Assembly (NCBI RefSeq): GCF_022045235.1 | Contig: NW_027266264.1 | Coordinates: 68,138,001 to 68,202,000, forward strand | Length of the DNA: 64,000 nucleotides | From: Haliotis cracherodii | Taxonomy: Eukaryota | Direction: 5' to 3' | Shown: positions 1,936-60,945 of the stretch, one piece after another | How positions within the stretch are numbered: position 1 is the stretch's first letter | Layout: the number at the start of each line of letters is the position of its first letter | Notes under the pieces: model-generated | Databases searched by the model: none | Told to the model about the DNA's origin: nothing | The model's input: only the letters and a program-made list of their open reading frames with translations | Made by a program: the position numbers and the translations under genes

Positions 1936-2101
1936 GAGGTGAGGTGAAATGGGGTTTAACGTCGCGTCCAAGACTATTGCACTTATGTAGCGACATGCAT
2001 GCACGTGTGTGTGTGGCTGCTTGTACTAGTCCGGACCTAGTCCGGACTGATGCCAATTTATAGTTTAACATGAATACCCCACTCAGACACAGTATACTGA
2101 C
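1936..2101 (-). mobile_element. SINE family 2, 3' part (seeds the higher-order repeat)
   Basis: Reverse complement of 55575-55769. Confidence 0.85.
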
Positions 2102-3935
2102 TACTGATAACCTTACACTCTGACACTGCATGGCTACGGTGGACCAATATAACCTCACACTCTGACACTGTATGACCATGGTGAACCAACATAACCTCAC
2201 ACTCTGACATTGCATGACCACGGTGGACCAACATAACCTCACACTCCGACACTGTATGGCCACGGTGGACCAACATAACCTCACACTCTGACATTGCATG
2301 ACCACGGTGGACCAACATAACCTCAAACTCCGACACTGTATGGCCACGGTGGACCAACATAACTTCACACTCTGACACTGTATGACCATGGTGAACCAAC
2401 ATAACCTCACACTCTGACATTGCATGACCACGGTGGACCAACATAACCTCACACTCCGACACTGTATGGCCACGGTGGACCAACATAACCTCACACTCTG
2501 ACATTGCATGACCACGGTGGACCAACATAACCTCACACTCCGACACTGCATGGCCATGGTGGACCAACATAACCTTACAGTCTGACACTGCATGACCACG
2601 GTGGACCAACATAACCTCACACTCCGACACTGTATAACCATGGTGGACCAACATAACCTCACACTCTGACACTGCATGAACTTATATAGCGACGTGCATG
2701 CACGTGTGTGTGTGACTGATTGTACTAGTCCGGACTAGTCCAGACTGATGCCAATTTATAGTTTAACATGAATACCCCACTCAGACACAGTATACTGACT
2801 ACTGATAACCTCACACTCTGACACTGCATGGCCACGGTGGACCAACATAACCTCACACTCCGACACTGTATGACCATGGTGGACCAACATAACCTCATAC
2901 TCCGACACTGCATGGCCACGGTGGACCAACATAACCTCACACTCCGACACTGTATGGCCACGGTGGACCAACATAACCCCATACTCCGACACTGCATGGC
3001 CACGGTGGACCAACATAACCTCACACTCCGACACTGTATGGCCACGGTGGACCAACATAACCTCACACTCCGACACTGTATGACTACGATGGACCAATAT
3101 GACCTCACACTCCGACACTGTATGACTACGAAGGACCAACATAACCTCACACTCCGACACTGTATGACTACGATGGACCAATATGACCTCACACTCCGAC
3201 ACTGTATGGCCACGGTGGACCAACATAACCTCACACTCTGACACTGTATGACCACGGTGGACCAACATAACCTCACACTCTGACACTGTATGGCCATGGT
3301 GGACCAACATAACCTTACAGTCTGACACTGCATGAACTTATATAGCGACGTGCATGCACGTGTGTGTGTGACTGATTGTACTAGTCCGGACTAGTCCAGA
3401 CTGATGACAATTTATAGTTTAACATGAATACCCCACTCAGACACAGTATACTGACTACTGATAACCTTACACTCTGACACTGCATGGCCACGGTGGACCA
3501 ACATAACCTCACACTCCGACACTGTATGACCATGGTGGACCAACATAACCGCATACTCCGACACTGCATGGCCACGGTGGACCAACATAACCTCACACTC
3601 CGACACTGTATGGCCACGGTGGACCAACATAACCCCATACTCCGACACTGCATGGCCACGGTGGATCAACATAACCTCACACTCCGACATTGTATGACTA
3701 TGGTGGACCAACATAACCTCATACTCCGACACTGCATGGCCACGATGGACCAACATAACCTCACACTCCGACACTGTATGACTACGAAGGACCAATATGA
3801 CCTCACACTCCGACACTGTATGACTACGATGGACCAATATGACCTCACACTCCGACACTGTATGACTACGAAGGACCAACATAACCTCACACTCCGACAC
3901 TGTATGACTACGATGGACCAATATGACCTCACACT
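1981..3935. repeat. Higher-order repeat: 3 x (SINE2 fragment + ~11-14 x 42-bp unit)
   Basis: Unit GGACCAACATAACCTCACACTCCGACACTGTATGGCCACGGT; higher-order starts at 1981, 2680 and 3336. Confidence 0.95.
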
Positions 3936-5601
3936 ACTCCTTTAACCACTGAATGCCCTCCATAGACCATGCCCCCTCCTAACAAACCCTGAGTTATAGC
4001 TTTATATATATTATATTGACTGAGATAAAGCGTTGGGAAAGCCTGAAAGAAGAATATGCGATTTATACTTGAGGACAGGTCAAAGGCATATAGGTGCGGG
4101 GTGAAAGATTCATTACGTTTCTTGTCAAACAAGCTACAGGTGACAAGTTGAACGCGGATTTCTGTTTTCGGCTGTGAAAATGTGAATATAAACAGAAATG
4201 AGTAACATCGATTTCTTTTAGATGTGTTCTGTAGACCAAGAAGAAAACACACTCCTCAAGTGAAATTTTGCAGTTTTCTCTTCGTTTCCGGAAAGTATCG
4301 ATTGTGAAATTCTCGGTCCAGTCGCTCGTAATTGCTAATGATGAAAAATACCAGATATACGCATTCTAGGTACAATTATTTTTTATCGGAGAAAGTTATG
4401 AAAGAATAATTACAGATCATGTGAATGTTGTAAATGGAATATAACAATAAAGCAAAAATACATAGATCTATGAATTAACAACAAAAGCAACAAAACCCTT
4501 TCCATTACCACAAGAAATATCTGCTGAAGGCAGAGTCCATTTAACGATTTGGCCTGTGTAATGGGCATACGTTTATGAATCACTAACAAATAGAAATGAT
4601 GCCAGGTGTTCGCGGAAAGGTGTCTCTCTCCAATGACACTAGGCGTTTGCGACAAGGGTAATCATGTCGGTAGTAGAAACATTCAGGTACCTTGGCAGCC
4701 TTTCATCAGAAGAAACTGCCAGCCTAGCAAGGGCTTGAATTTCAGGATCGTCACCCTTGTGACAAAACTGAATCCCGGTCGAACCAAACGGGGTTTCACA
4801 TTTCCTTGGAAATTAACTATCCGACATACTAGGATTCGAACCTGTCGAACCCGCGAAAAGAGCATGCCTGTCCTGCTCTACAGGTAGTAAGCATCACACA
4901 TACAATTTTCATTAAGAACAAGAGTTTGTCAAATGCCTAAACCCTCACCCAGCAATGCTCCTTACATATCGCCTGTAAACAATTGCGTCTGGACCGGACA
5001 ATCCAGTGATCAGCATCATGAGCAATGATCCACGCCGTTGTGGTACGACGCCACACTGTCAACCAAGGACACCAAGGATGACCACCAGATTAATAAAAGT
5101 TAGCGCCCGTGAGTAAGCTGGGTGTGAAAACTCCCTAGAAAGGTCATAGTATGGGATAACACCGCACAATCAAAGTGTCGTATTTGGTACATGCCTCTGA
5201 ATGCACCATACCATCTCTGGAATGAATTGACCTGGTCTTTGCTGTGAAATACGGATCGAAAAGCTTAGTTTCGACATGAAAGGGAAACTCACGATGTGAA
5301 ACGCTTTTCCAAACATGTTAACACCTTTAGCGTTAATTGACAATCAGTTCACTTGTGTAGCATTTAGGTAGCCTGATAGCGCCATAAACAAAACACTGGA
5401 CGTATATACAACAATTATGATACAAATAATGTCTACACTAATACAATCTGAGCAGTAATATCAAAATATAAACAGAAAATTAGAAAACATGGAAAGGCAT
5501 AATATCTTCGGACAGTAATACTGTATGAACTCTACAACCCTACAAGTAGATATCTTGCATTCCCTGGTACAGGGTTATTATCGGGGGAAGTAAATGTTAG
5601 A

Positions 5602-5870
5602 GTGAGTTAGTTGGGTTTAACGCCGCTTTTAACAATATTCAAGTAATATCGCGGCGTGTCAGCTTAGTGTGGGAGGAAAGCCCGAAGTGATGCAGGTCTC
5701 AGACGTTTACCACTTCGGTGAAACCCACGAGCGCGGGTATGGTGCTGACAAACCTTGAAACATAATCGGGGCGAACCGGGATTCGAACCCACAATCATAG
5801 GTTTCCCCAAGGGACGCAACTCTGCACAGCGAAACGCGGCGCCTTAGACGACTGGGCCACCCGTATCCCC
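5602..5870 (-). mobile_element. SINE family 4 (tRNA-Leu/Ser-like head), full length, downstream of the gene A stop
   Basis: A box TGGCCCAGTCGTCTAAGG, B box GGTTCGAATCC, TSD AGTAAATGTTAGA at 5589-5601 and 5871-5883. Confidence 0.9.
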
Positions 5871-6331
5871 AGTAAATGTTAGAATGATTTAATGATCAGT
5901 AAGATCCATCATAATGAAGGCGTAGAATTCTGTCAATTCTCTGAACTCTAGCCATCTCACACGACAGTCAACGTCTTTTAAAAAGAGAAACACATCAACA
6001 AATGGCTCTGTTCGCAACTTGAACCATGGGCATGAGACTTCGAATGTCACAACTATCTCTCCGAAGATCATCGCTATGGTACATTCGTTTCACGTGTCAC
6101 AAGTGGGGTGTACGGTATTTACGAGCTGAAAGTTTCTGTACGCCGCTTGACCCCTTGCCTTGTGGTACACAGGACCATTGACCTCGTAGCATCCCGTACA
6201 CTCCTCTTCGGATTTCAATCTGTTGAATCGCAATATCACGTAGTAATGTTGGGCGATAAACCAGTAGCTTCTCTCGGCCAAACCATATGATCGAACTAAG
6301 ACGCGCAACTTGCTGGAGAAATATTATCCAT

Positions 6332-6374
6332 CTAAGGATCTACATCATTCTTTCCGTCATACAGATCAGAGTAC
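6332..6374 (-). CDS. Gene A terminal coding exon (YSDLYDGKNDVDP*)
   Basis: Strong acceptor TGTGTTTTTCAG; the TAG position is conserved in gene B. Confidence 0.8.
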
Positions 6375-9300
6375 CTGAAAAACACAACATTGCAATTTAT
6401 CAACGCCTGATAATCATTGATCTCTAGTAGCGGCATATAATTCAGGTCGCCTTCGGTTAACCATGTCTGGCTATGAATCCTGACTTGGATGTGTTCTTTT
6501 GAGTGTATGAGGGTATCTGTAACGGCTGATAACTCAGGTCGCCTTCGTGGTTAACCATATCTGGCTATGTACCCTGACACGGGCGTGTTCATTTGATTAT
6601 ATACGTGTTTAATCAATGGTGGGTGGGTGAGTGAGTGAGTGATTGAGTGAGTGAGTGAGTGAGTGAGGGAGGTTTTCCGCCGTTTTGAACAAAACTATGT
6701 CAAGGAGTCTGAGCTTAACAGGTAATGAACGCCCAAAGTGTCGCTGGTTCAATACGTCTACTTATTTAGGCAAACCCACGGACAAGGGTATGGTGCTGAC
6801 AAAACAAGAATTATTATAGTGCGAATTTCAGTGTTCGAAGCTACGACAAAGACAACATGGCATTCCTAAGGGACGCAACTCTACACTGCTCACTGCAGCA
6901 CATGTCCCTTTGTAGTTTGTGTGTGTGTTGAGAGGCGCTCTTCCTTGTGACTATAGACGCTGGTTATCTATACTCACTACAGTCAGGGTATGTACAGACG
7001 CTCTATTCTGGGTATCTATACCCACTACAGTCAGGGTATGTACAGACGCTCTATTCTGGGTATCAGTACCCACTACAGTCAGGGCATGTACAGACGCTCT
7101 ATTCTGGGTATCTATACCCACTACAGTCAGGGTATGTACAGACGCTCTATTCTGGGTATCTATACCCACTACAGTCAGGGTATGTACAGACGCTCTATTC
7201 TGGGTATCCATACTCACTCTATTTTGGTCACCTCTTGGAACTTGCACTTCTGAATATCATCGTCCGGATCTAGATACGCCACATCGAGTTCAGTCTTGTA
7301 AACTGAAACAAGTTATATCACACAAACGTTTGTACTTATCTTAAAATTATTCGTACGACGGATGTGCACGCGTATGGAGGTAATAGTCCATAGTTCGTCT
7401 CACTGCCTATTTGAGAAGATTTAGAGGAATTTTGTGAAGGATGTAAACCTACAACTTACGAACATTTTAAGGACGTTCGCCTGTCTATTTCAAGAGTATT
7501 TGACCTTTCCAATGAAAGGTTTTCCAAAGCCTTTATCATTTTAACTAACTGCATTTTTTTTGCACTTTGAAGCATTTGCTTATGCTCATATTCCCCCTTT
7601 ACTATAAATTTTATTACAGATTGATTGAATAATCATTCGCAGTGTTTAGAGTTTCGCATTTAGATATAATAAATGGTATATAATTTTAAACAATATTTTA
7701 ATCACACATGGAACAATCGTTTATATAAATATATAGCTCCATAGCACATATTTCCTAGTCTGATACTTTGCTTTGCCAATCTTAACAACGTGCGCATTTA
7801 CGGAATTCCCTTGACCAATTCCATTCCATTTACTTTGCAGAGTCAAACGCGACTTGTAGTAAAACGAGGATTTATAATCAGTGGATTTTGATTGATATAT
7901 AATTCCTACCTTTGACGAACTAACATTAAACCTAAGACTCCTGGCGTCCACGCCTCATGTATTTGTGTACGGTGGCAATGGTGGGGCAGGACATACTGAC
8001 CTTTTCGCGAACACCTGTTATCATCACTATGTAATAGGGATTCATAAACACATGCTATGACACGGTCTAAATCGTACACTGGACTCAAATTGGCTACACT
8101 TTTCCCTTGTGTTAAGAAACTGTGCCTACTGCTTAAGAATGACATTTCACCAGGTATCATCACTATTTGTTAGTGATTAATAAACACAGTTTGAGTTGCG
8201 CAGTGATTACATGGTGGTAAGAGCAGACATCCTTAAAGATTCTAGAAAAATCATGGCAAGTGAAACAAGAAATGGATTTCACACAACCGCGGACTTCGGC
8301 GTGACAACAATATCCTTTCCATAATAATATAAGAAATGTTTGCTAAAAGCAGAGTCCATAGTACGATTCCGACTACTAGTGTATCATAAGCATGTGTTTA
8401 TGCAATCACAATCAAATAGTTATGATACCAGGTGTTCGAATAAAAGTGAGCGTATCTTGCCCCACCGGTGGCACCCCTCACAAACGCGTTGTTGAATCAC
8501 AATATGGTTAAAACTATGTACTTTTGTAGGCTCCCTCTTCCTTCTTCCTGGACATGGCGATGAAGGCGAGGACGAGGAGAACCAGTAGCACCACGAACAG
8601 GACCACCAGGATGATAACCCATGAAGGGAAGGCCGCCGGTGCTACTACAATCGGTGCTGCAATGATAACACGAATTGACACATACAGGTACATTTAGGGT
8701 AATACAGTGACTGCTGATGTAGACACCATGTAAGTCTATGAGGTTGGTGGATTGACGATGTCAAATGTAACATCGTATGACAACTCTGATGCTCTGGAAC
8801 TATGAAATAGTTTCAGATACATAAAAAACACATTGGCAGGAAAAATGTATATGTCCATATCTGAATAGCCCGAATATCAAAAATACAGTTTCGCGTTAGC
8901 AACATGGCATTCGTATTAAATGGATGCATCTGCAACTTGCATATGTTATATTATTCTATACAACATTGACACGTGTTTCAAAATATGATACTCATATGTA
9001 AATCTATGTCTATGAAGCCTAAAGAATAGTTTATTTATAGTCACTTTCCTTCTTTAAGAACTTCCAAAAGAAGCGTTATCGAACATATTTGAAACCTTCA
9101 AACTTATAAAAGGGAGCCTGTCTGGAGACCCAAAACTACCCCAAAACGCACAGTAATCAACAGGCCTCGGGGAACACATCCAGTGGTTGAGTGAGTAGCC
9201 TATAGGTAGCTTTTAGCAATATTCCAGCCAATTCAAGACGTACGGCCAAACCGCCTGGACGCCACATGTACACATGTTGGGAAGTGAACTCGACCTCAAA

Positions 9301-12300
9301 GGTACTATTAATTTGAGAGACATAAGTCACATGCTTGACATAGCAGACATGGTGACAGCATCCGATGTTCATATATACAAACCTGTCCCATCCTCTAGGG
9401 CAACGTCAATAACTACACGGCGGGTTTCAAAGTCGTGGTACAGCACTCCGGTGTAGGTTCCTTCTATCTTGTCGTACTCCTCATCGCTCAGACGTGAAGT
9501 GTTGATGTAGGTTTGTTTTGTGACGTCGTCATAGATCACATGTGGCGGTAGTTCTGTGTAATACGTTTCATTCTTGAATTCCCATCTGTACCTGAGAGTC
9601 ATCCCCGGGTCTGTGGTTCCCCGCACAGTGAGGTTCATCAGATCACCTTTCTTGATGCCCTGTCTAAGAGGAGGCTGTGTAGTCACTTTGATAGGCTCTA
9701 AAACATGATATAAATTCGTTACATTGAATCATCACTTTATGAAACAACTGAACTGATTTTACCACATGCAATCAACTGTCATGGGTACAATTGGCTCTCA
9801 TGTGGCTGTTTGTTATATGGTACAATCTTACTTTCAATCGGAGCGGTCGGGTAGCCTAATGGTTAAAGCGTTCTCTCGTCACCCGAAGACCCTGGTTCGA
9901 ATCCCGACATGGGTACAATGTTTGAAGCCCATTTCTATTGTCCCCTGCCCGTGATATTGTTGGAATATTGTTTAAAGCAAACTCACTCACACACTCACTT
10001 ACTTTCGATCGAGGTCAGTATCACATTGCTCTCACAGAGCATGTTTCAATTGTGAACATTAGACGTTATAGTGCTTTATCAGAGAAATCTTCATTCTTTC
10101 GCGATAGGTTGATTGCTTTCACTTAACATAGGTATGATATGTTGTGGGTAACAACCAAGATAACGTCCGATGAACTTTTTAATAAAAGGACATTTTACTT
10201 CATAGCTTTCATCAGATGTAGATACTTTGATGTCGGAGCTTTGACGTATGATGTGCAATTTTGCTATTGAAACCCTGTTATACTACCTGGATAATTCATT
10301 TAAGGAAAATGAATTATTGATTTTCGAGTTTATGATCTCACATATAATCATTGATAAGATACAATATTGATGGGATATCAAACGAGCTTTCCATTTCCTA
10401 TCAAGATAATATCATTTGTGAGTAAATGAGTGAGTGAGTGAGTGAGTATGGTTTTATGCTGCTTTTAGCAATACATAATAGTAACATAATATTCCAGAAA
10501 TATCATGGCTAGGGACACCTTGAATACTAGTATATAACATATATTACGTGAGAAACATGACAGAAAATTTTGTAGTTTATTTGCTGCGGTATGACTTGTT
10601 AGTCTATGTATGGAAAACACATTTTCATGAACCAAGATATGAATTATTGATAAAATAAAATTCGTTAAATACATTTTGAATTTGTGATATTTTAAAAACA
10701 TTGTTTATAACTAAAAGGCCAATTTGTAATGCCATTTTTTGTTTTTGTATCATTAATTCGATTTACTGATTTTTGATATAATAAAATAACACATATAAAG
10801 TAAAAAGCGCCTCAATTCAGTCAGAAGGGTATTACCTACCTATGACATTGAGACAACCGTTAGCAAACTCGGAGCCTATCGAGTTGGCTACCCGACATTG
10901 AATGCACATAATGTCATCTGGCTTGGTCAGGTTTGTGACGGTCAGAACACGGTCACGTTCGCTGAACAGGATCTTTTCATTACCTGTGGGCAGAGCAAAG
11001 TTCATGTGTTAACTTAACACTTACTTGGACCATGGCTTTCCGACCATCCGACGTCTCAATATTTAATTCTTTACTTTCATGGTAGTACCTCTCGGCTCTC
11101 AGACTTATAAGTTTCGATACTATCAAAATGCAAGAATAGGATCGCAATAAATATTTCCAACATCTTTTAGTTACGTGACTCATTACACATTTCGCTCATG
11201 ATGTTCTAAATGCATTCACATAGGGTTGCCGGTAAAACTCATAGAGAATTATTAGAGCAGTAACCCCTTCCCACGGTAGATCGAAACAAAACATATTTTT
11301 TTCTGGGAAATAGACATACTAAATGGTGAATAAGGATGGCTGTGTCCTTTCCTTTGGTGGCAGGGGTATTCTTCAGAGTGTTCTCTTCTCGATTACTGAC
11401 TTACTGATAGGAGTTCATATGATTCATAAGAAATGATGACATTTCATGAACAACTGAACGCATACATCGTCAACACCAGATAATAACCAGTCTCGATTAT
11501 CCGTCGAAACAGATTCCACTGACCCTAACCCTTTCCATTTTCATCGATTGTACGATTCCGACTTTATCATGAACATGTATTTGTGAATCACTATCAAATA
11601 GTGATGATACTTGTCTTCTCGAAAAGGTAGTCGAATCCTGCCCCTCCGATTGCCCCTCATAAACACATGCAAAGGCATTTCAATTGTTTACCTAAAGGCA
11701 ACATATGGTACAAGGGACTTGCATCGGACATGTCACAGATAGTGATGCGTCACTGATGCGTCAAGTTTGGAATGTCCCGTATATGTCTACCATAGACGCA
11801 AAAGTCTGGAGCTGCTGGGATATTGCTCGACATGAAGGGAAAGTTGACTTTTGGAAAGTTGAAGTCGTCGCTCTTGTCGAAGAGTCGTGTGAAGAGTTTA
11901 TTGTCCCTCTGAAATCTATGCACATATCTTAATATGAAATAGACGAGGCGGTTTCACTGATCTCCCTTATGTTAAGTTCAGGTGGGTAAATCAGTGGAAG
12001 GGAATTGGCTATTAGACGGTTATTGAACGATATCAGATAACCGATATACCTTAAACTTAAGTTACACTTGGCCAAATTCCCTTGTTTTGAATTTGCTGAT
12101 CGATGATTGTATGAAAGATTGTGGTTAATCTTTAAGAAGGGTATATTAGCAGGACCCAGCAATATATCTCTATTTGTACGGAACACTGTGGAGCTTTGGT
12201 ATCAAGTTCAAAAAGGGTTATGACATATCTTCGGATAAAGCCAAAAGCTGATAGTACTGTTGCGTGGTTTAAGCAGTTTACTTCCTCAGGTTACATACTG

Positions 12301-15300
12301 GCCTAATATTTATCATGATTCGATTCACCTAAGTGAAGTTCTTTAACTACAATTACTGTAGTTATGCTTACATATAATGGTTATGTTATCTGAGGCCTTG
12401 TCAGTGGGAATATATAACGTCAACGTCAGAGAATAATGAGTTTCGACCATCCAGCAGGACAGATTCCATAAAGCGTAAAAAGCAGAAGGTCGGAAGGGCA
12501 AGCCAACACTACCGGTCACAGCCGCCACTCATACAAGCTTTATAAACAAGTAAGTGTTCGTCCATCGTCTTACAACAAGACATAATCAGGTTCGAACACT
12601 CATAGTAAAATACCCCTATGAATGACAATCCAACAATAGAGAATAATCTGTACCTGGAGGATTGTTCATGTTGATCTCCACCCCATTCTTGAACCACACA
12701 GGGGTACTCGGCTCATTCTCCGCACGAGCCGAACGGGCCTTACAGGTGAAGGTGGCATCTCGACCCTCGGGTATAGTCTTGTTGTGAATGCCCTGTACCC
12801 AGATAGGACCAGCTGCAACATGATATATGATGATTAAATTTACAACACCCACCCTCATCCCTGCCACCATCTACATCAACAGCCCTTCCCCCCACCCCAC
12901 CCAAAAACAAACAAACAAACAAACAAACAAACAAACAAACAAACAAACAAACAAACAAACAAACAAACAAACAAAACAAAAAACATATCCACTAGTATCC
13001 CCAGAAAAAATATCCATTATCAACCTATCAATATCCCTACAATGATATTCACAAGCATTTCCACAATAGTCCCACCAATGACCTCACAAACATCCAGAAA
13101 AACATCCACACGATCATCCCTACAAACGACCCGTACAAACACATACGCAATCACCTCACCATTATCCCGACAAACATATTCAACAAAATCCCCAGAAATA
13201 TATCCACAATCATATCCAACCAAAGCACACAGAAACGTCCCCCATTACATCCCTTGATCGTCCCACCAACATCCCAACACCCACACGAACATATACACAA
13301 TCATACCCACAATCATCGCACCAACATCCCAACAAACACATAAACGAACATCCCCACAAACATATCTACAATCATCCCACAAACATCCCCACAAACATAT
13401 CTACAATTATCCCACAAACATCCCCACCAAACGAGATCCCTAATCATCCCACCAATATCCGCACAAACATATCTACAATCATCCCACAAACATCCCCACC
13501 AAACGAGATCCACAATCATCCCACCAATATCCGCACAAACATATCTACAATCATCCCACAAACATCCCCACCAAACGAGATCCACAATCATCCCACCAAT
13601 ATCCGCACAAAGACATCTACAATCATCCCACAAACATCCCAACCGATAACCAAAGAATGAGATCCGCAATCATCCAAACCAATATCCGCACACACATATC
13701 TGACAACACTCTCACAAACATATCCACAATCATTCCATCAACACCTCCATCAACATCCACACATACATCCCAATAAACATTTCAACAATCAAAACAGCCA
13801 CATCCATCCAACTTCTCCACAAAGATATCCACAATCAACCCATCAACAACCTCAAAAACATCCCTAAAATACATCCACGCAATTATATCCATATTTCCCC
13901 CACAAACGTCGACTAAAATATATCCACAATCACCCCACCATCATCCCCACAAACATATTCACTGATATTACCAGAAACATCCACAATCATAACCGCCCAA
14001 AGTACACAGTCACATCCCCCAAAACACACCCACATTTGTCCCCAAATCCCTACAAACATATCCATAATCACACCCACAATCATCGCACCAACATCCCAAC
14101 AAATATATTCACAATCTTCAACAAACATCCCAAGAAAGATATCCACAGTCATCGCACCAATATCCGCACAAACATATCGATATCCGACCACCATCTCACA
14201 AACATCTCCGACCACACTCTCACACACATATTCATAATCAGTCCATCAACATCCCCATCAACAGGCTCACCAACATCCGAACAAACATATCTCCTACAAT
14301 TAACCAAGCAACATCCAACCCACTTCCCCACAGAAAATATCCCCACTCATCCCACCAACATTCCAATAAACACATCTACAATCAACCCAGCTACATCCGA
14401 CCAACATCCCAACCAGCATCCCCACAAACATCCCCTCCAACATATCCACCTTCATCCCCACAAACTTTTCCACTAACATCCCTACAAACATTCACAATTC
14501 ACAATTTGGAACATCCTACACAGATCTCCCACACCACTGCTGCATCCAACACATTTACACCCTCCCAGAGACACTAAAACCTGCCATTCTCGAAGACATC
14601 ACGGAGACAGTACATGCTTGAAATGGAACCAACACATGTTGTGTTGTGGAATAGCTCATGACAACCTACATGTTACGTTCAGGAAGATGATGTCTTCGAC
14701 AGAAATAGAGCTTTTCCCCTTGCATCTATAAATGCCTTCATCATCATCTGTTAGGTTGACAATGTGCAGTTTCATGTTGTTCTTGTCAAGTTTGTACTTC
14801 TTGTTGGTCGTGATGGGCTCTCTCCGTGGGTTATACCACTGGACTGACGGGATAGGGCTTCAGATACAGAAAATTGGCATAAAATACATTACACTTCTTC
14901 GTAAAATCACAGCCTGCAAAAAAGCTCTATTTCAGATGCTGCATTTAACCCTATTCCTATTTCCTATTATCCCGATTTCGATGTCCACGTTATTCATGTT
15001 GCTTTACTTTTCATTTATATTATTATTATAAAATATAGTATCAGGTTAAACTAACTATTATCATGTAAATTTGATGATAAATGACAGATTAAAATGACAA
15101 ATGAAATGATAAAATGGAACCTATGGCTGTACAATTTGTACTTGATTGATGCAAGTGTCTCAAGTTTGCTGATGGCAATCTGATTTCTTTGGATTACTAT
15201 GGTTTCTTGAAGTTTTGATTAATCCTATCGTAATTCCTGATTTGGTGTGCTTCGAGAGCCTTTTCCTCTCACTCTATGTTAATGTATGGAAACTACACCA

Positions 15301-18300
15301 GGCCTATAGAATGTTATGGAACTGTTGACACTTACTTTCCACTGAAAACACACTCCAGTTCTGCTTTTTGGCCTATGAGGAACTGGGTATCGGCGGTCTT
15401 AAACACATTTTTCGGAGGCACTTGGGGTTTAACTAAAGTTATAAACCAAGATGGTTCAGAAACAGGTCATAAAGAAACAGATCCGCAAGAAGGGGAGCAC
15501 AAAATGTGTGTTACCCAAAAGTTTACATAAACGTTATTAATGAGGAAGTCCAGCATTTCACATATTGTTTTGTCAGTAAACTACAGATTGAATTTGGATA
15601 ACAGCCGCCTGGGACAGAATGGGTTAATTCCAATTTTGTTTCCTCTTTTTCAGTTTGTGCGTTTTACCAATGACATCACGCACTGATTGAAGCAACCCTG
15701 AAGACAATTCAACAGGTTCCTGCTCTCTTTTGTCCCATTCATTGGCATATTGTTCGACAGCATCCATAATAAGTTGTGATCTCCATTTGAAGGAGGCTAC
15801 CCACGACATTTTGGTCCATATTTGATATAACTGACGAAGGTTGCTATTGTCAACAATAGCGAAGCCACCTGTGATTATATGACCAACAGGTTGATAGCAG
15901 TATTGTGAGTCTTGGCAGCCACAAGTTGTGGAATTAACATGAAGAGCTGCCAAGTCCACGTTCTACAACACGTTTCTATAATTGCATATGAATGAGTTTA
16001 TCATTCACTATCAAATGAAAGAGAGGCAAGCTGAGGGTATGGTACCACTTATAAATATATCAAAACTCCATGTTTTACTGCAATATGTTTGCTATTGTTT
16101 TTAATAGAGCAGCTTTGTCTGATATGTTATCAAATGTGAAATCATACTAAATCGTATACAACTGTTACACTGAATGGACTGATTCAAATGGGTTCGCATA
16201 TTCTCACCTTCTACTGGTTTAACTGTCAGCTTCTTTGGGCTGCCAAGTTGGATATTATTGCGATTGACATTGTACATGGCGCACTTGTATATATCAACAC
16301 CAGTCTGGTCTTCCATTTCCAAGAAGATAAAATGCAGGGTTCCTTTGAATTAAAAATTTACGCTATTATTCATGCATATACATTGTAAATGATTAGGTGT
16401 GGAAGCTCTGAATTAGTGTGTCCTTAAAGAAAGCTTTATAGAGCGCACCAACCATAACATCCTGACATTATGCCTGTTGGTTATGATGGGGAGTCATGGT
16501 GGTTCTGTTAAAACATTGGGCTACAACGGTTCTGCTTGCTCTAAATGCTCTGCTGACTGTCTCCGTCACGAGGCTGTAATTTAACATTTAAGGGAGTGTG
16601 ATGATTTAAAACAACAGATAGCTTCAAACTTAGGCGCTGCATTAAAAACTCCCCTCCGCCAAAAAAAACGCAGAACTTAAGACCTTCTGTGATTAAAAGT
16701 AGGTCTTACAACTCCCATATGGTCACTTTTCGGCTGCTAGTGTATCGTCAGTATGTTGCATTATGTACTAGTATATATGTCCTTTAGCTGTACCAGTCTC
16801 AGCTGGTGGTGGTCCAGAGTTGGACCCATTGTGATCCTTGGTCGGTCTGCACCATGCACGTGCTTGTGGGTTTCATCAAAGTGGTACGAACAAAGTCCCA
16901 TTGGGTCTTCTTCCCAAACAAACACAAACATATTCGAACTATTGCTGTAAACACACTACACTACACTACAAATTACCCCCAAGTCTACATGATAACAACA
17001 ACATACAGTGTACATCAAGAATCAGCAGGATGCAAACCTTTATCGTCAATATAGATTCTTTCGCTTTCTTTAACTTGTCCCTGGGTGCCATCTGTTCCTT
17101 GTCGGAACCACATGAAGCGTGCTGGAGGAACGCTCTCTGGAACATCCCCACACTCGAGGCTGGCATACTCCCCCTCCGACTTGATTATGGGTGTTGGTAG
17201 GGCGCCGCTGTCAGACCAACTTTCTAGAACTAGAAACAGCACCAGTATGATGATGTCAAACACAGGCGGCATTAAATGATGAGATGGACCTGTATATCAT
17301 TACCATGGGATTGTTTTGTGTATTGTTATTATTAAACAGTTCTCCCAATTGTAATTGTGGACTATTCCAGTGTATTGAAAGGTGTAAACCCAAGAAGGTA
17401 GGGATACAGATCTTCAAGGGTCGAATGTCAAAATATTTTCGAAAGAAATACAGCTTATATATCATATTGTGAATTTCAGAAAACACATAATAACTCATAA
17501 ATAATATCTTCGGCTTTGAAGATATACCGTGACTGCACTGTTGTTTTAATAGGCATTGAAAATATATTTTTTCTAATGATGCTTTATAATTCAGTTGAAA
17601 GGGTAATAGCAGAGTGTAACTATGTTTCCTCATGATGTTTTATAATTAAGTTAAACTGAACAACTGGAATCCGTATATGAGTTAATGTTGTTTATCGCAT
17701 ATATGGGTGAGAGAAATAACTGTTTGTATGTTTGAACAAATGATATAAATTCAGTATGACCATTGTGTCTCTTAACGGGAAAACAATATGGGTCATCTTG
17801 ACTTTCGATGTCAATTCAGCCTTTAACAAATTGAAGAATTATTATATTGGAGTGGTTATTATTCTGCATTGACAATTTATTTCACATTGTTTCACCATAG
17901 ATAGCCTTGAACATATACTGATGGTATATACGACTCTTTACAAAACCTGTGATGGGTGACTACACACCCACAGAATGAATACAGCCATAAGCAGTCACAG
18001 AAAATATACACGTGACTCTACACTGACACAATAAACAAATTCGTGGAAAGTGTTGGATTTATGACTATGCACTGACAGAATTAACAGAACCATACACATC
18101 CTTGGACATGTGACGTCACATTTGGACCAGTGAGGCTTCTCACTGTATTTGTAAACGCTCTGATTAAAAAACAGCATCAATAAAAGCCTAACTTCCCTCA
18201 CGAAAGTTTTAACGATAAACCTGTTTACAGACAGGCATACTTAGACTGCGTCCAACTGTTCCACTATGAACTTGCTATTGATGCAGTTGATCGATATGCT

Positions 18301-21222
18301 GCACTGAATATGTAATTAACTAAAAGCTGAAACAGTATTTTTCCATCAAGATAAGAGAAATTAGTCAGTAATTGTCAGGAAACAAACATTAAATTGTCTC
18401 ACTATAATGTGGAGTTCCCAAGGGTTCTGATTTTGGTCGCTATTTATTCTGTACAACAGCCAGTTTAAAAAAACCCGGATAAATGAGTTTCCCCTGCCAT
18501 ACCTTTATAGCCCCATGGATCTCACAATAAATGCTATGATATTACATAATAGTCCAAATCACTGGTATAAAGCCTTCAGTTCAGAAGGTTCAATAGGATG
18601 TTATAGTTTTGATTCGGTACGTTCAAACATATCTAAAGTCGAAGGCATCAAAGTTGCAGGTAATGCACTATACAATCAAAGGGGAATAACTCACCGATTT
18701 CTATCAGGGTTGTAACGGGTGACATGGCTAACGGGTTCACATCCGAACCAACATTATTCCCCACTGCACACTGATACTCCCCCTGCTCTCTGTCTGTGAA
18801 GCTGGGTATAGTCAGGGTGCCGTTAGTTCTGTCTACTTTTATATGCTCGTTTGACGATTTAACCTCGTCTCCTTTGAAGAACCATTTGTATCTGAAAATA
18901 GAACGGATTTGGAGGTGATATCACAATACATTTTTGACAACCGTTGCTTCAATTAAAGATTATTTAATGTAATAGCTCTCTTGTTATCGCTTACAAGCCA
19001 TAGCTTATGATAAGGGTTATTTTGCTCACGTGGGTCTGGGGTTTCCCTCTGCCGTGCAGGGGAGAACAACCTCCGAATCTTTCTTGATGTAATCCTTCTT
19101 ATGGGCGTCCGGTTTAGTTATGTATGGTGGAATTCCTATGAAAATAGTAAATATAATAATAATATACAGTTGAATTTGGCGGGAATGAGGGGATTATCCG
19201 TATTTCAAAGAATACTAGTGAGTGAGAATAGTTTTACGCCGCTTTTAGCAATATTCCAGCAATATCACGGCGGGGACACCAGAAATGGGCTTCACACATT
19301 GTACCCATGTCGGGAATCGAACTCGGGTCTTCGGCGTGACGAGCGAACGCTTTAACCACTAGGCTACCCGACCGCCCCTAAAGAATACTAGTATATGAGG
19401 ATATGCCATGTAATATGTAATCCTCAGGAAATAATGGAATTATATGTGCCCATTGAATTGACGAGGGTTTTCCACATTTCACAATGATGGTAACATCATG
19501 GTAACTAAGCTGAAACCTTCAACGCTAGTCATGTATGGAATTATATGTGCCCATTGAATTGACAAGGGGTTTTCCACATTTCACAATGTCTTCATATGCC
19601 TGTATACCTATTGTGTACACATGTATGTCTGCCTACAGCTACCATTATCTGTAAATGAAGCGAAAAAGGCCTTTCCACATCCAATACAAATCTCGATTAC
19701 ACGATTCCGACTATAGCATGGGAATGTGTTCATGAAGCACTATCAAATAGTAATGATACCAGGTGTTCGCGAAAAGTTGAGCGTACCCTTTCCCACCGGT
19801 GGTATTCGTCACAAACACATGCAAAGGAAGTCAATTGTTCAAATGAAAAAATACGGGAACATATTGTACACGTCAAAATAAGGAATTGCATTGGACATCA
19901 TTTTTGTCACTGATGCGTCAAATTTGGAAATGTCTACCATAAACCTTTCGAAAGCTTTACTGAGGCCTTGAATGTTCTAACCTTGATCAAACATCGTATG
20001 GCTCTCTTTGAAATTTTCGTAGAAAGAGCCTGCTCGATTGTATCTCAAAAGTTGTGAAATGTAAACACCAAAGGCTGGAGCTACTGGAATATAGCTCGAC
20101 ATAAGGGAAAGTTGACTATTAGATAATGAAGTCATCCCTTTTGTCTTAAGTAATATCAGTGGCAGTAGAAACTATTGTAGATGTATTTGTGATAATTGTC
20201 AGTGGCAGCAAAAGCTCGTGAAATGTCGAGTGTGGTAAAGTCCAGATTTTAACAGGAAGTGAGTATAGTTATTTACTCATTGCTGTTGTAAACATACATA
20301 TATATGCTCTCTGCCACATGGCATTCATTCACCTGATGAAGGAGTAAGCATATACTCCCAAACGTTGTGTTCCTCATAATGATAAGTTGACATCTATATA
20401 TTCTCTTTCTTAGAGAAAAAGGTTGTTATAAAATATAATACCTTAGCCAATTCGTTTAGCACAGTAACACCAGTCGCAAGTCAGTAAAAGATCAAAACTG
20501 CCCCACAATAACGTACTTGCGAAACTAAGATTCAACCTGACCACCCAGTAACAGAACGGTCCGTCAAGGTCTAGCGATTCATGATGATCATTACATTCGA
20601 TAGCGCCGAGGTTCTTTAACGAGACGTGCGGACCTCGGTGAAGAAAACCACCCCAAGCTAGCAGGGAAAACTGTTCGCTCCCGGAACTGAATCGAACCGT
20701 GCTTTCTAAAATATGGATAAAACAAATAGCACACAACCTACTAAACCGATTTTGGACATGCAGGTACGAAAATAAAGGGCCACAGGTACCATTAAACATT
20801 TACAACCAGATATGTTCAATGAGTAAGGTAGGAAAAATGACTACAAATATATGAGAAATATCTACTTAGTTCTAGATAATCCCACTACGGCATGTAAATC
20901 AACGTTACTAAAACACATTCAATACACGAAGAAGCTTACATACACATATGAGATAACGACATATGTCAAATCGACACACATATGATAAGAAAACAAAAAA
21001 CAAATGCAAGAGAAAAAAATATACAGACAACAAATTCGCGAGCGACAGCTTAATGAGCACGAGAAGGGAGGCGATAGGATCACTGTACCGTGACGAACTG
21101 GGTTTTACGATCCGGTACCAGACACATTACATTAATTACAAAACTGTTAAACATATCTTACTCTGAGACGTGACACTGGGTACTGCGGCCAGCAAACAGA
21201 CGAGGGAGAAGATGGGTGTCAT
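6332..21222 (-). CDS. Gene A: L1CAM/neuroglian/hemolin-like type I membrane protein (SP-5xIg-TM-tail), 13 coding exons, ~618 aa
   Basis: Exons 21162-21222, 19030-19135, 18695-18891, 17038-17229, 16208-16342, 15336-15432, 14670-14857, 12654-12812, 10840-10983, 9383-9697, 8522-8656, 7218-7302, 6332-6374. All have GT-AG boundaries and compatible phases, sum to 1857 nt and contain no internal stop. Ig motifs include CTAEGNPRP-YKW, GEYQC, LECVFSG-P-P-V-W and DEGIYRC. Confidence 0.9.
6670..6900 (-). mobile_element. SINE family 4, degenerate
   Basis: aaacccacg...gggtatggtgctgacaaa...aagggacgcaactct. Confidence 0.7.
6960..7217. repeat. 48-bp minisatellite x~5
   Basis: TGGGTATCTATACCCACTACAGTCAGGGTATGTACAGACGCTCTATTC. 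Confidence 0.95.
7218..7302 (-). CDS. Gene A cytoplasmic exon 1
   Basis: IYKTELDVAYLDPDDDIQKCKFQEVTKIE; TTTCAG and GTGAGT. Confidence 0.88.
8522..8656 (-). CDS. Gene A transmembrane exon
   Basis: WVIILVVLFVVLLVLLVLAFIAM followed by basic SRKK and EEGAYK. Confidence 0.92.
9383..9697 (-). CDS. Gene A membrane-proximal cysteine-less Ig-like exon
   Basis: EPIKVTTQP...GTTDPGMTLRYRW...GTYTGVLYHDFET; phase 1/1, 315 nt. Confidence 0.9.
9840..10000 (+). mobile_element. SINE family 1
   Basis: A/B boxes and body match the other copies. Confidence 0.85.
10840..10983 (-). CDS. Gene A Ig4 C-half exon
   Basis: VLTVTNLTKPDDIMCIQCRVANSIGSEFANGCLNVI. Confidence 0.9.
11480..12300 (-). mobile_element. Penelope-like (Naiad-type) RT 3' relic
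   Basis: IYPPELNIREISETASSISY...DKSDDFNFPKVNFPFMSSNIPAAP, frameshifted. Confidence 0.8.
12654..12812 (-). CDS. Gene A Ig4 N-half exon
   Basis: GPIWVQGIHNKTIPEGRDATFTCKA...PVWFKNG. Confidence 0.9.
12903..14520. repeat. (CAAA)n followed by A/C-rich low-complexity tract with 72-bp units at ~13370-13640
   Basis: Very few G on the plus strand; recurrent acaaacatcccca and caatcatccca. Confidence 0.85.
14670..14857 (-). CDS. Gene A Ig3 C-half exon
   Basis: PIPSVQWYN...KLHIVNLTDDDEGIYRCKG...IFLNVT. Confidence 0.9.
15336..15432 (-). CDS. Gene A Ig3 N-half exon
   Basis: VKPQVPPKNVFKT...GQKAELECVFSG; donor GTAAGT. Confidence 0.9.
15460..16100 (-). mobile_element. Penelope-like (Naiad-type) relic with CxC linker and RT piece
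   Basis: TCGCQDSQYCYQPVGHIITG (CxC linker) and CAPLLADLFL (RT). Confidence 0.75.
16208..16342 (-). CDS. Gene A Ig2 C-half exon
   Basis: GTLHFIFLEMEDQ...YKCAMYN...LGSPKKLTV; donor GTGAGA. Confidence 0.9.
17038..17229 (-). CDS. Gene A Ig2 N-half exon
   Basis: EGEYASLECGDVPESVPPARFMW...ERIYIDDK. Confidence 0.9.
18695..18891 (-). CDS. Gene A Ig1 C-half exon
   Basis: YKWFFKG...NGTLTIPSFTDREQGEYQC...AMSPVTTLIEI; TTTCAG and GTGAGT. Confidence 0.92.
19030..19135 (-). CDS. Gene A Ig1 N-half exon
   Basis: IPPYITKP...VVLPCTAEGNPRP; AG and GTGAG boundaries. Confidence 0.9.
19220..19379 (-). mobile_element. SINE family 1, full length
   Basis: TSD AAAGAATACTAGT at 19207-19219 and 19380-19392. Confidence 0.92.
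19660..20150 (-). mobile_element. Penelope-like RT C-terminus plus 3' repeat relic
   Basis: Homologous to 22720-23280. Confidence 0.8.
21162..21222 (-). CDS. Gene A signal-peptide exon (MTPIFSLVCLLAAVPSVTSQ)
   Basis: ATG at 21222, hydrophobic core, phase-1 donor GTAAGA; acceptor TTTACAG at 21267. Confidence 0.85.
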
Positions 21223-21424
21223 TGTTACTCTTAGCCCCGCCAAGGACAGTGTCCCACACAGGCAGTCTGTAAACAGTACATAGAAGTGAAACTTGAGTAA
21301 CAAACATTATTAAGACATACGTTTGTTGTAGACAAAACATTACAGTGTTTTCCCGATAACGCACAATGCATACATGAATGTGCCAGTGGCCTTCACAAAT
21401 ACATTTGAATGAAAACAGTAAATA

Positions 21425-21616
21425 CAGTAAACTACGGTTATAACGAACACGTTTATAACGAACTGATGGATATAACGAACTAATTTTTTAGTCCCGACTG
21501 TTTGATGTAGTTATGCTGTATATATGCTTATTACGGTTAATCTATGGAACGAATTACGGTTATAACGAACTAAAATTAGTAGTCCCTTTGAGTTCGTTAT
21601 AACCGTAGTTTACATG
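21425..21616. mobile_element. Tc1/pogo-type MITE
   Basis: 22-bp perfect TIR GTAAACTACGGTTATAACGAAC; TA at the left end. Confidence 0.85.
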
Positions 21617-35100: not shown

Positions 35101-38100
35101 CGGTATAGGTAATAAATAGATACACGTCCCTGACATTGAACGTCTGAATACAGAATGGGCTACTTTCGTATTAATGGTGGGCATTAGGTCTGTGAGCTAA
35201 TCACTCAATATACGGGCTAGTTGCATGGGACACAAGGCATGTGTCAAATATAAACTGCTGGCGATATGAGACTATAATCAATTATTACAAGCAGATTTTG
35301 TACTTGTATCTCAGCAGTGTGTGTCCAGTATTGCACAAAGAGCGTAAGAATGAACCGTCTACAGGAAAGTATGGACTGAAAACATCTATGGTCGAGGGTA
35401 GTAAAGTTGCACACTGTAGTCTCCTGATCATGAAATAACTCTAAAAAGTTGAAAATAGAAATGTGATATTAAAAATAGAACCAAATAAGATCGTTGTTCC
35501 CTGACACACAACATACAAGGCTATGAAAAGAGTATCCACCAATCAAAACATGTGGGATTCTCAATACATTGTACTCTGTCACATGAATAGAAACAGAATT
35601 CACACAAAATGGAATCGACACGTTTATGGAGACAAATCATTGTATTCTTATAACTTAATTCTACTACTACGCCCTGATACCATGAAATAGTTAACGAAGC
35701 TACTTACTGATGACGTTGAGACAACCGTTGGAAAACACGGAGCCGATGTCGTTGGTGATCTGGCACTGGAAACACATGATGTCATCAGGTTTTGTCGGCT
35801 GAGTCACTGTCAGGACTCGACCTTCGTCCCTGAAGATGATATTACCTGCGGAACGACAGGGACAAACAGTCAGTTGTCTGAGGCATTGTAGTGATATCAG
35901 CATGAGGGTTTATGAGGTGGTCGTAGGTCACCTTCTCAGGTTCTTGTGCATTGTCAGTGTGAATAAAAAACCACCGAGACTCATCCTCTACAGCTATTAT
36001 GCTTACACAATACATAAGAATGACGTTCAATTCTACGAAGATCCGATATAAAATTGCTCTTCAGCAACCCATGCTTGTCGTAAGATGCGATTAACGGGTT
36101 CGGTCGACCAGGCATCGTATCCCAATTGCGTAGATCGATGCTCATAATGTCAGTCCCTGGGTGGTCTGGTCCAGATTCAATTAATTACAAACCGCTGTCA
36201 TGTAAGCTGGAATATTGCTGAGTGCGGCGTTAAACAAAAAAGGAGATTCGGATTTTGTCAAATAAAGCTGATACTTTAGAAATACTAGGATACTATTGGT
36301 TATGATGCATTTAATTGCATGTTAAGCAAAAACATACCATATATGAAACGTCAAAGCTACATTCTGACTGAATAAAGGGGACGCCACTCGTACGGGCGGA
36401 AGAAATTCTTGTTACTTTTTGAATTAGAAAAGGACCCTTACATACATGTATGTTTGATGAAATATTTGTTTTACGCTAATGTCAGACGAATATACGATAT
36501 AAAAAAACCAGTCTGAGATATAATCTGGCGATGGGATGCGACATAGTAGTTTCAAGATGATTTCATACATCATTGTATGCCGTTTTTAAATAATCGTTGG
36601 TTTAGAATTATACAATTAAATTTCCGTTGTGTTCATTGAAATTCCTGTTTTCTGATTAGATGAATTGGTCACGCGTTATTGCATTCATTTCCCAATGAAT
36701 GTAAAAAATTAAGCCACGCCCACCGAGGCGCACTGCTTTTATTACTTCGGAATGTCGGGGAGTCCCAATATTACAGTCGAGGGAATTCCCTTTCTGCTCA
36801 CGGGTATCGTCATGCACAGGATATTTAGCGACTTTCATGCATATTCATTGTCCAAACAAACCTTTGAAACCGAAGGCCGAGAATGAATGAAACAGCAAAC
36901 GTGCAAGCTCGCTCGCCTGTTTTTTTTTTGCTCGCCCCGGTTCAATTTTCATGTCTTCGGGTTTCATTTCTCACTAGCATTTTTCCAACTGTGTTTACCG
37001 TAATCAGGGAAGTAATGTTTGAACATGGCGGTAACTGACTGTTTCATTTGAAACAGCCGCCTTCTCTCGGACATATTTCTTCCGGTTCGTTAGTCTGACT
37101 GTTGCAGTTCTTTTCGCCTCTTGTCTTAATTGAGGGGTCAAATGAACATCGTTTTGATCCTGCTCTCCGTTGATTAGCTACTGACTGTGTAGGCGTGTCA
37201 AGTTATGTGCATAAATTAAACGATCACCTGGTTCATTCACGCCACAGTATGTATTCCTACACCCGGAATGTTAATCAATCTCGAATTTTTTGTCTGTTTT
37301 GATGTATACAATTGTTTTTGGTTAAACTATTGTAGATAAAACATGTTTTATGTTGCCGAATTTAATTATAAGCATTGACTGGGTAATTTGTTCGAAAAAA
37401 AATACATAGTCAATCCTTTAATAAGATAATAAATAATCATTTCACGTTCATGTCTTATGATCTAAATTTGATTAACTTTCGTCGATATAAGGAATCCATT
37501 GTTTAAAAGAATGTTGTATGTAAACTGTACTTTAAAAGTATTTTATTTATTTTTTATAACAGCCGCGCCATACAAACACATGTCCACACCCACGCCAAAA
37601 CGATTTATTGTATGAAGAATGTAATATATAAATTAATCAAACGAGAATAGGACAGTCACAACTAACATCCCACTCAACAGCACATCAATTTTCCAGAATA
37701 TGCATGCGTTGTTTCCTCTGCACCAACTGATCTTATTTACTAAGTTTATGTCATGCTTTAAATAGAATATACGTCCTGTTGCATGGTTGTTCTATTAGAG
37801 TTTCATCTAATCAGTTTCACATTAAAATGTATGTACAGTAAACTACGGTTATAATGAACACGCTTATAACGAACTGACGGATATAACGACCTTACTTTTT
37901 GGTCCCGACTACTTGCTGTAGTCATGCTGTATATGTACTTATAACGAACTACGGTTATAACGAACCGTAGTTAACTGTATGTTTAAAGACATGTACTCTG
38001 ACTTCTACGTTACATATGAAACAATGAAAACGTCAGAGTTCTGGTCATGTCGCTCATCTTGTATTTGATTGCCTTGAGTTCAGTTCACCAAACTAAGTGA

Positions 38101-60777: not shown

Positions 60778-60945
60778 GGGGCGGTCGGGTAGCCTAGTGG
60801 TTAAAGCGTTCGCTCGTCAAACCGAAGACCCGGGTTCGATTCCCAACATGGGTACAATGTGTGACACCCATTTCTGGTGTCCCCCGCCGTGACATTGCTG
60901 GAATATTGCTAAAAGTGGCGTAAAACCATATTCACTCACTCACTC
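60778..60945 (+). mobile_element. SINE family 1, full length
   Basis: ggggcggtcgggtagcctagtggttaaagcg...cactcactc. Confidence 0.92.

Follow-up and report, generated by a model that had tools for sequence, protein, structure and literature searches.

We consider it probable that gene A, one of two neighboring L1-derived immunoglobulin (Ig) receptor genes in Haliotis cracherodii, is a chimera that joined the outer domains of one receptor type (alpha) to the membrane anchor and tail of its neighbor, gene B, through a crossover in the exon for the fifth Ig-like domain (Ig5), and that DNA-level conversion re-copied the transmembrane (TM) exon after the species split. The two genes have a common 3' half because A likely arose as such a chimera, a point missed by an earlier reading made from the letters of this DNA (the sequence-only reading), which had described recent conversion of a constant membrane and signaling module under divergent ligand-binding domains.

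Structure of the two genes

The window, by which we mean the whole 64,000-nucleotide stretch of H. cracherodii DNA analyzed, contains genes A and B head to tail on the minus strand, B being transcriptionally upstream of A. Exon phases are identical in the two genes, splice sites are canonical, and the products correspond to two H. cracherodii RefSeq proteins. The features of the genes are as follows:

6332-21222, minus strand: gene A, 13 coding exons, 618 aa, alpha ectodomain with short T1 tail, likely chimera; identical letter for letter to P0001 / XP_071105281.1
30641-51498, minus strand: gene B, 13 coding exons with the same phases, 614 aa, beta ectodomain with short T1 tail; identical letter for letter to P0013 / XP_071100656.1
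10840-19135, minus strand: gene A Ig1-Ig4 exons, partner 35708-50918; 210/399 aa identical (53%), pS 0.64, introns unalignable
9383-9697, minus strand: gene A Ig5 exon, cysteine-free Ig-like; likely crossover zone and start of A/B non-coding homology; pS 0.10
34401-34715, minus strand: gene B Ig5 exon, from the exon model
8522-8656, minus strand: gene A TM exon, encoding a stalk, a TM helix (predicted, 543-570) and a basic juxtamembrane stretch; 135/135 nt identical to B
33592-33726, minus strand: gene B TM exon, from the exon model; matched with 0 other letters by an X16 contig with B-type flanking exons
7218-7302, minus strand: gene A first cytoplasmic exon, partner 32251-32335; identity 0.966, sorts by gene; spliced joints with CT..AC ends
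6332-6374, minus strand: gene A last coding exon, partner 30641-30683; YSDL in A, NTDL in B
1986-6331, minus strand: 3' flank of A, patchily homologous (68-87%) to 26523-30638 behind B; tail end of the duplicated block

Each product begins with a signal peptide, which is followed by four Ig domains, a fifth Ig-like domain free of cysteines, a single TM helix that carries no charged residue, and a short tail. The solved structures nearest to Ig1-4 are those of neurofascin and contactins (E 3e-31 to 7ok5 by sequence; E 8e-31 by fold). Ig5 has a strand-rich predicted fold (pLDDT ~80-88 in the AlphaFold model), and the overall pTM of 0.34 means that the domain arrangement, horseshoe shape included, is not fixed by the model. 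Pfam scans of A and B found no FN3 family, the TM segment following directly after Ig5, and the FIGQY ankyrin-binding tail is absent from both, so we regard the two genes as L1-derived but not canonical L1.

Homology between A and B breaks at Ig5. None of the nine introns 5' of it can be aligned, whereas all three introns 3' of it can (61-94%), together with patches of 3' flank down to ~1986. The hand counts of the sequence-only reading for Ig1 (47/100 aa identical), Ig5 (84/105 aa) and the first cytoplasmic exon (82/85 nt) were all reproduced. The TM exon is identical at 45 of 45 aa, with 0 differences at 36.7 synonymous sites, and the last exon at 9 of 13 aa.

Several repeats and length differences were also seen in and around the two genes. 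The second intron of B (44005-50812) measures 6808 nt against 138 nt in A, and an N gap (39220-39382) lies in another B intron. The end of B's Ig2a exon, together with its donor, lies in a 95-bp unit present in ~3 tandem copies (42804-43093, 95-97% alike), which are either spare donor sites or a local assembly duplication. Beginning at the donor of A's first cytoplasmic exon is a 48-bp tandem repeat (6960-7218), of which B has one related unit. Behind A lies a long tandem array (1978-3935) with a period of multiples of 21 bp, with just a brief diverged stretch left at the counterpart site behind B (26523-26657). A dispersed short repeat family (40-164, 9839-9978, 19201-19382, 41396-41578, 49532-49692, 49902-50072 and 60777-60944), whose copies are 85-95% identical, is very abundant in all runs of the comparison set that includes X16 (below).

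An identical tract over the TM exon

Direct comparison of the letters gave 0 mismatches in 294 nt between two segments covering the TM exons, and the exact run between A and B halts at both ends of the tract, so the perfect 294-bp identity claimed earlier stands. The tract and its surroundings comprise:

8375-8668, minus strand: youngest conversion tract, gene A copy; 294/294 identical to 33445-33738
33445-33738, minus strand: youngest conversion tract, gene B copy; 294/294 identical to 8375-8668
8241-8374, minus strand: older extension of the tract, identity falling stepwise; exact runs of 37 and 31 nt, partner ~33316-33444
8305-8485, no strand assigned: interspersed-repeat fragment in the intron after the TM exon; 9 other matches in the window at 72-86%

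The tract contains the whole 135-nt TM exon, flanked by 12 nt of intron on the acceptor side (8657-8668) and by 147 nt of the intron that follows (8375-8521), and thus spans both the acceptor and a weak donor (GTACAT). The longest other exact run between the two genes is 67 nt. When mismatch events were permuted (n=10,000), a run of 294 was reached in none; the maximum was 85 over 8241-9697 and 205, still below 294, over the most conservative interval, 8241-8690. Identity at the synonymous and non-coding sites of the tract far exceeds that of its flanks, as expected of conversion, and the 95% upper bound on A/B divergence within it, 1.0%, is under a third of the between-species value. Identity over 8241-8521 and 33316-33591 is 94.3%, and its stepwise decay towards 8241 suggests nested older conversion tracts.

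About 111 of the 147 intronic nucleotides (8375-8485) are part of the interspersed repeat. We rejected independent insertion of this repeat as the cause of the identity, since its other copies reach only 72-86% identity and the tract continues through the exon. The label "retroelement relic" given to it in the sequence-only reading could not be confirmed: a longer copy scanned in two frames against Pfam gave no match, and the only lead, PF26215 from the Atlas at 0.89, is sub-threshold. Older, inverted copies of the same family (7962-8188 versus 8352-8484) lie in A's intron beside the tract and are missing from the B alignment.

Evidence for conversion after the species split

We compared the window with 8 of 18 listed public runs, using assembled contigs (Logan) from which rare variants have been dropped. 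X2 and X5 represent organism A (this species) from two studies, X2 possibly sharing its project with the assembly, and X11 represents organism B; none of the listed runs is registered as RNA, but X12, X14, X15 and X16 are tentatively taken as such, and their spliced joints and alleles were used but not their depth. In X2 and X5, a single contig runs from 8454 or 8447 to 8668 with 0 other letters relative to the window. In three of four runs (X2, X5 and X11) a contig ends at 8668 and an A-flank contig starts at 8639, the 30-base overlap (8639-8668) being that expected at a branch of the assembly graph, and the ratios of tract to flank depth in these runs are 2.4, 1.6 and 2.2. The X11 contig ending at 8668 has 7 other letters. 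In X7, a contig of 761 nt shows 11 other letters over 8447-8685, of which four are likely A/B flank differences, and one X16 contig joins B-type cytoplasmic exons to the TM exon with 0 other letters. Clean contig cover extends over 8447/8454-8668, so that the repeat end of the tract lies outside it, and with rare variants dropped from the contigs one or two differences between the copies could be hidden. The breakpoints and roughly doubled depth are those of two copies, and assembly collapse, the artifact on which the earlier claim was said to hinge, is unlikely.

Divergence of the tract between species is ordinary. Organisms A and B differ at 7 of 222 nt of the tract and at 41 of 1144 nt in three mostly intronic flank contigs (Fisher p = 1.0); over the same 222 nt, the paralogues differ at 0 positions and the orthologues at 7. 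All three organism-C runs have the organism-B letter at 8557, 8607, 8616 and 8622, sites of single changes of which three are silent and one alters a residue, and these four changes are therefore derived in organism A, where they stand in both copies. A quartet of the A and B proteins from H. cracherodii and H. rufescens gave 2 sites sorting by species and 0 by gene in the TM exon, versus 136 by gene (0 by species) in Ig1-4, 8 by gene in Ig5, and 3 by gene (0 by species) in the cytoplasmic tail. Over the TM exon, the H. rufescens A and B proteins share 98% identity, one TM residue being different. A matching conversion in the lineage of organism B is suggested; position 8623, absent among the organism-C rows listed, is thus unpolarized. 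Because the tract takes in intron, the exchange was not by way of spliced RNA. Interlocus conversion over the TM exon after speciation is strongly supported, bearing out the recent conversion proposed earlier: between species the tract diverges as fast as introns do, yet within each it is common to both copies.

Origin of gene A

Among the H. asinina and H. rubra matches, the alpha ectodomain occurs only on a long tail with an ankyrin motif (T2), and beta alone carries the short tail (T1), the absence of the chimera from these species being based on annotation; H. rufescens carries alpha-T2, alpha-T1 and beta-T1. At sites diagnostic of alpha or beta, gene A has 54 alpha and 0 beta residues among 62 in Ig1-4, and 10 of 10 beta residues in the TM segment and tail. 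At the other 8 of the 62 it is neither alpha nor beta, compared with 2 in H. rufescens. In the Ig1-4 tree, the alpha ectodomains form one clade (95/97). For the TM segment and tail, an alpha clade is rejected at a modest AU p = 0.032, in a tree from which two T3 rows (see below) were excluded. The Ig5 protein tree does not resolve, which leaves the breakpoint located no more finely than the exon. Diagnostic sites number 1 in 105 in Ig5 versus 62 in 405 in Ig1-4 (p 7e-6 for the loss), and little species-specific sharing is seen in the Ig5 of the two outgroups (2 and 3 sites in 105 versus 1 and 1 in 405); repeated Ig5 conversion is thus supported, mainly by the loss of diagnostic sites.

In the history that we infer, an old duplication would have given rise to alpha and beta. 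Homogenized Ig5 exons would then have led to a duplication-type unequal crossover, duplicating at least 7.7 kb and placing an alpha-5'/beta-3' gene downstream of beta. Later conversion would have persisted where homology is long and indel-free, that is, at the TM exon and the adjacent repeat fragment, and the short cytoplasmic exons and introns elsewhere would have drifted apart. The position of B upstream of A in transcription is the order that this crossover predicts. An H. cracherodii alpha-T2 gene would be expected beyond the left end of the window; protein searches found no such gene in this species, and bases 1-2000 gave no alignment to 21300-26600, which lies upstream of A. Contigs of low depth from organism C match the intron of A itself with 9/282 and 11/277 other letters, so gene A is likely older than the split of organisms A, B and C; among these contigs, which are uninformative either way on this point, none was seen linking alpha Ig4 to the short tail.

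A wider receptor family

A third ectodomain, gamma, bears a third tail, T3, in both H. cracherodii and H. rufescens, and a beta-ectodomain gene bears T3 as well; outgroup gamma genes have a T2-like tail. T3 (P0026, P0028, P0014 and P0003, outside the window) has a PKRC-like ending with YLTP and YY motifs and is found under gamma and beta ectodomains in the two species, the protein search giving no further carriers. Five sites in the tails of beta-T3 and gamma-T3 sort by gene and none by species, which implies that beta-T3 predates the species split and that its tail is not being homogenized. Seven sites in the ectodomains of beta-T1 and beta-T3 sort by species and none by gene, with 16/401 ectodomain differences between B and its beta-T3 paralogue. 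The beta-T3 gene looks like a second chimera, and the data suggest a chain of gamma-T3, beta-T3, beta-T1, alpha-T1 and alpha-T2, with three ectodomains, three tails and two chimeras, whose order is taken from accession numbers and of which beta-T1 and alpha-T1 lie within the window. Conversion between alpha-T1 and alpha-T2 on the ectodomain side is no more than suggested in H. rufescens (29/405 versus 47/405 differences), with no H. cracherodii partner found. Gene A's ectodomain (10840-19135) differs from its H. rufescens orthologue at 47/405 residues, which, together with its 8 diagnostic sites that are neither alpha nor beta (H. rufescens: 2), suggests acceleration in H. cracherodii.

Pfam placed Bravo_FIGEY above cut-off in the long-tail relatives (P0017, P0021) and in 4 of the 5 non-abalone relatives scanned, none of which had FN3; 10 of the 98 relative matches were looked up. 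L1-like proteins of ~620-700 aa with a similar fifth domain occur in several gastropods and an oyster (P0036, P0040, P0044, P0047, P0092, P0121), with no FN3 match in those of them that were scanned. A literature search, with most subscription papers outside its reach, turned up no account of this cluster or of molluscan L1-like genes that lack FN3.

Tails and ectodomain evolution

The last-exon motif reads IEYSDL in A, IENTDL in B and IEYTEL in H. rufescens B. The tyrosine is lost in B (NTDL, 30641-30683) and kept in A (6332-6374), in H. rufescens B and in both outgroup short tails. We take A's IEYSDL to fit the ITIM and YxxL sorting consensus motifs. With cytoplasmic residues sorting by gene at 3 sites and by species at none, and with these different motifs in a last exon of which 9 of 13 aa agree, the constant signaling module of the sequence-only reading is not supported. 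In the available part of PMC2196473, FIGQY is assigned a role in ankyrin binding. The crossover would have freed the alpha ectodomain from an ankyrin-binding L1 tail and set it on a short, tyrosine-bearing one, so the chimera would likely confer alpha specificity without ankyrin anchoring.

Between H. cracherodii and H. rufescens, the ectodomain differs at 60/510 residues in A, 34/506 in B and 23/510 in a neuroglian-like control. By our own arithmetic, neutral change would give ~8% at 3.6%, against which the 60/510 of A is fast, though conversion could contribute.

Alternative explanations

That the identity of the tract is an artifact of assembly collapse or polishing would be very surprising. 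The window does contain a 163-N gap and local tandem duplications, X2 is possibly from the assembly's own project, and contigs hide rare variants; however, a second study (X5) and another organism (X11) give a two-copy contig with the identical end, the X16 contig carries the TM exon unchanged beside B-type exons, and independent H. rufescens proteins agree at 98% over the exon. It is equally hard to credit purifying selection on the nucleotide sequence, such as a splice or RNA element, with no exchange between the copies. The acceptor and weak donor within the tract would offer a target for such constraint, but the tract has diverged between species as fast as introns have (a refutation that holds if the organism-B contig is orthologous), and the derived changes are common to both copies. 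Gene A could also have begun as a full alpha duplicate whose 3' end, at least 7.7 kb, was later replaced by B sequence in a single long conversion; alternatively, the chimera could be ancestral in Haliotis and either lost or unannotated in H. asinina and H. rubra. The introns of the 3' block are only ~60-80% alike between A and B, which makes the event old, and the alpha long-tail gene of H. cracherodii was not found. We nevertheless judge both versions improbable, as a single crossover accounts together for the gene order, the sharp Ig5 break and the flank homology, and the tails of A and B, each 93-94% identical to its H. rufescens counterpart, fall away from the two outgroup short tails in a tree that conversion affects.

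Adaptive concerted evolution would be compatible with a chimeric origin of A and would differ only in why the exon stays identical, selection favoring conversions that keep the TM and juxtamembrane segment the same on the grounds that the two receptors pair with one another or with a common membrane partner. The acceptor-side contig end at 8668 recurs in two organisms, the TM exon is near-identical within both species, its GC3 is 32/45 versus 217/406 and 210/402 (p 0.027 and 0.018), as repeated conversion would give, and an argument of this kind was made for TLR1/TLR6 in the accessible text of PMC2077338. Against selection, 159 of the 294 nt of the tract are intron and repeat, the fixed boundary is accounted for by the indels and closely spaced mismatches that adjoin the exon on its 5' side, the second tail-sharing pair (beta-T3 and gamma-T3) sorts entirely by gene, and the TM exon took an amino-acid change in H. 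cracherodii. We regard an adaptive cause as possible but doubtful. Conversion limited to the longest indel-free stretch can proceed with no selection, and the unconverted T3 pair indicates that a common tail does not require identity; the identity of the TM exon itself need not be adaptive.

We would only speculatively, and with more doubt than belief, read the family as an abalone-clade combinatorial chain in which two unequal crossovers combined three ectodomains anew with three tails (ankyrin-binding, short Tyr-motif and the novel T3), conversion matches the common half of neighbors and selection drives rapid change of the ectodomains, yielding immune or self/non-self paired receptors from a neural adhesion molecule. 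The alpha ectodomain with and without an ankyrin-binding tail, together with T1 under two ectodomains, amounts to a dated natural experiment in receptor modularity: since the same ectodomain stands on two tails and the same tail under two ectodomains, the effect of each half is directly testable. The second tail-sharing pair, being unhomogenized, allows one to ask whether TLR1/TLR6-style conversion reflects selection or residual homology alone. In practical terms, short-read variant calls over the TM exon in black and red abalone are confounded by the paralogues.

Comparison with known systems

Anti-Lepore-type fusion genes combine the 5' part of a downstream gene with the 3' part of an upstream gene and are sited between them. 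The polarity of the putative gene A chimera is of this type, the abalone fusion being present in at least two species. Insect hemolin, an immune protein with L1-like Ig1-4, is secreted; its structure (1bih) came at rank 27 in our fold search. Unlike hemolin, the abalone receptors are membrane-bound by their predicted TM segment, and an immune role for them is hypothetical.

Canonical L1CAM/neuroglian proteins, as defined in the parts of PMC2196473 and PMC3796554 available, have six Ig domains, five FN3 domains and a FIGQY tail, with Ig1-4 homologous to neurofascin and contactin. A and B resemble them in their best structure matches (neurofascin and contactins), and their long-tail relatives in carrying Bravo_FIGEY; unlike them, the abalone proteins have five Ig-like domains, the fifth cysteine-free, and A and B have neither FN3 nor a FIGQY tail.

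In paired leukocyte receptors, the accessible text of PMC3210942 describes "merohomogenization", in which homogenized ectodomains stand over different tails. The sequence-only reading had called the abalone pattern the reverse of this. That is so for A and B, which are inverse in pattern (53% identity over Ig1-4) and whose T1 TM helix lacks a charged residue, but not for the family, in which beta-T1/beta-T3, and probably alpha-T1/alpha-T2, have homogenized ectodomains over different tails. Classical paired receptors also signal in opposite senses, activating and inhibitory, on a shared ligand; the one feature of this sort in the abalone pair is the ITIM/YxxL-like motif of A.

In fugu clustered protocadherins, according to the available part of PMC1852091, membrane-proximal 3' regions are >99% alike under divergent 5' regions, with raised GC3. 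Conversion there takes place within large variable exons of many paralogues, whereas the abalone case involves whole multi-exon genes and a tract that runs into an intron. TLR1 and TLR6 are tandem paralogues whose ligand-binding N-terminal part groups by orthologue and whose TM-containing region is homogenized within species, with conserved boundaries, ~300 aa converted including most of the TIR domain, and an extreme C-terminus that escapes (PMC2077338, as far as its accessible text goes). A and B are alike in converting the TM region beneath divergent ligand-binding domains; they differ in having an Ig fold, an exact tract made up of a single 45-codon exon with adjoining intron, and a common half that likely came from a chimera.

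EMR2 (ADGRE2) is, in the available portions of PMC2077338 and PMC2720389, a chimera of CD97 and EMR3 with the ectodomain of one neighbor and the membrane part of the other, maintained by conversion with both. Gene A likewise probably has its ectodomain from one neighbor and its membrane part from another. EMR2, however, is a mammalian adhesion GPCR formed by one chimera between oppositely oriented neighbors, whereas the abalone genes are head-to-tail mollusc Ig receptors with likely two chained chimeras. The conversion mechanism is thus of an already known kind; the novelty lies in where it is found, a mollusc L1 family without FN3 domains that likely carries a chain of chimeras.
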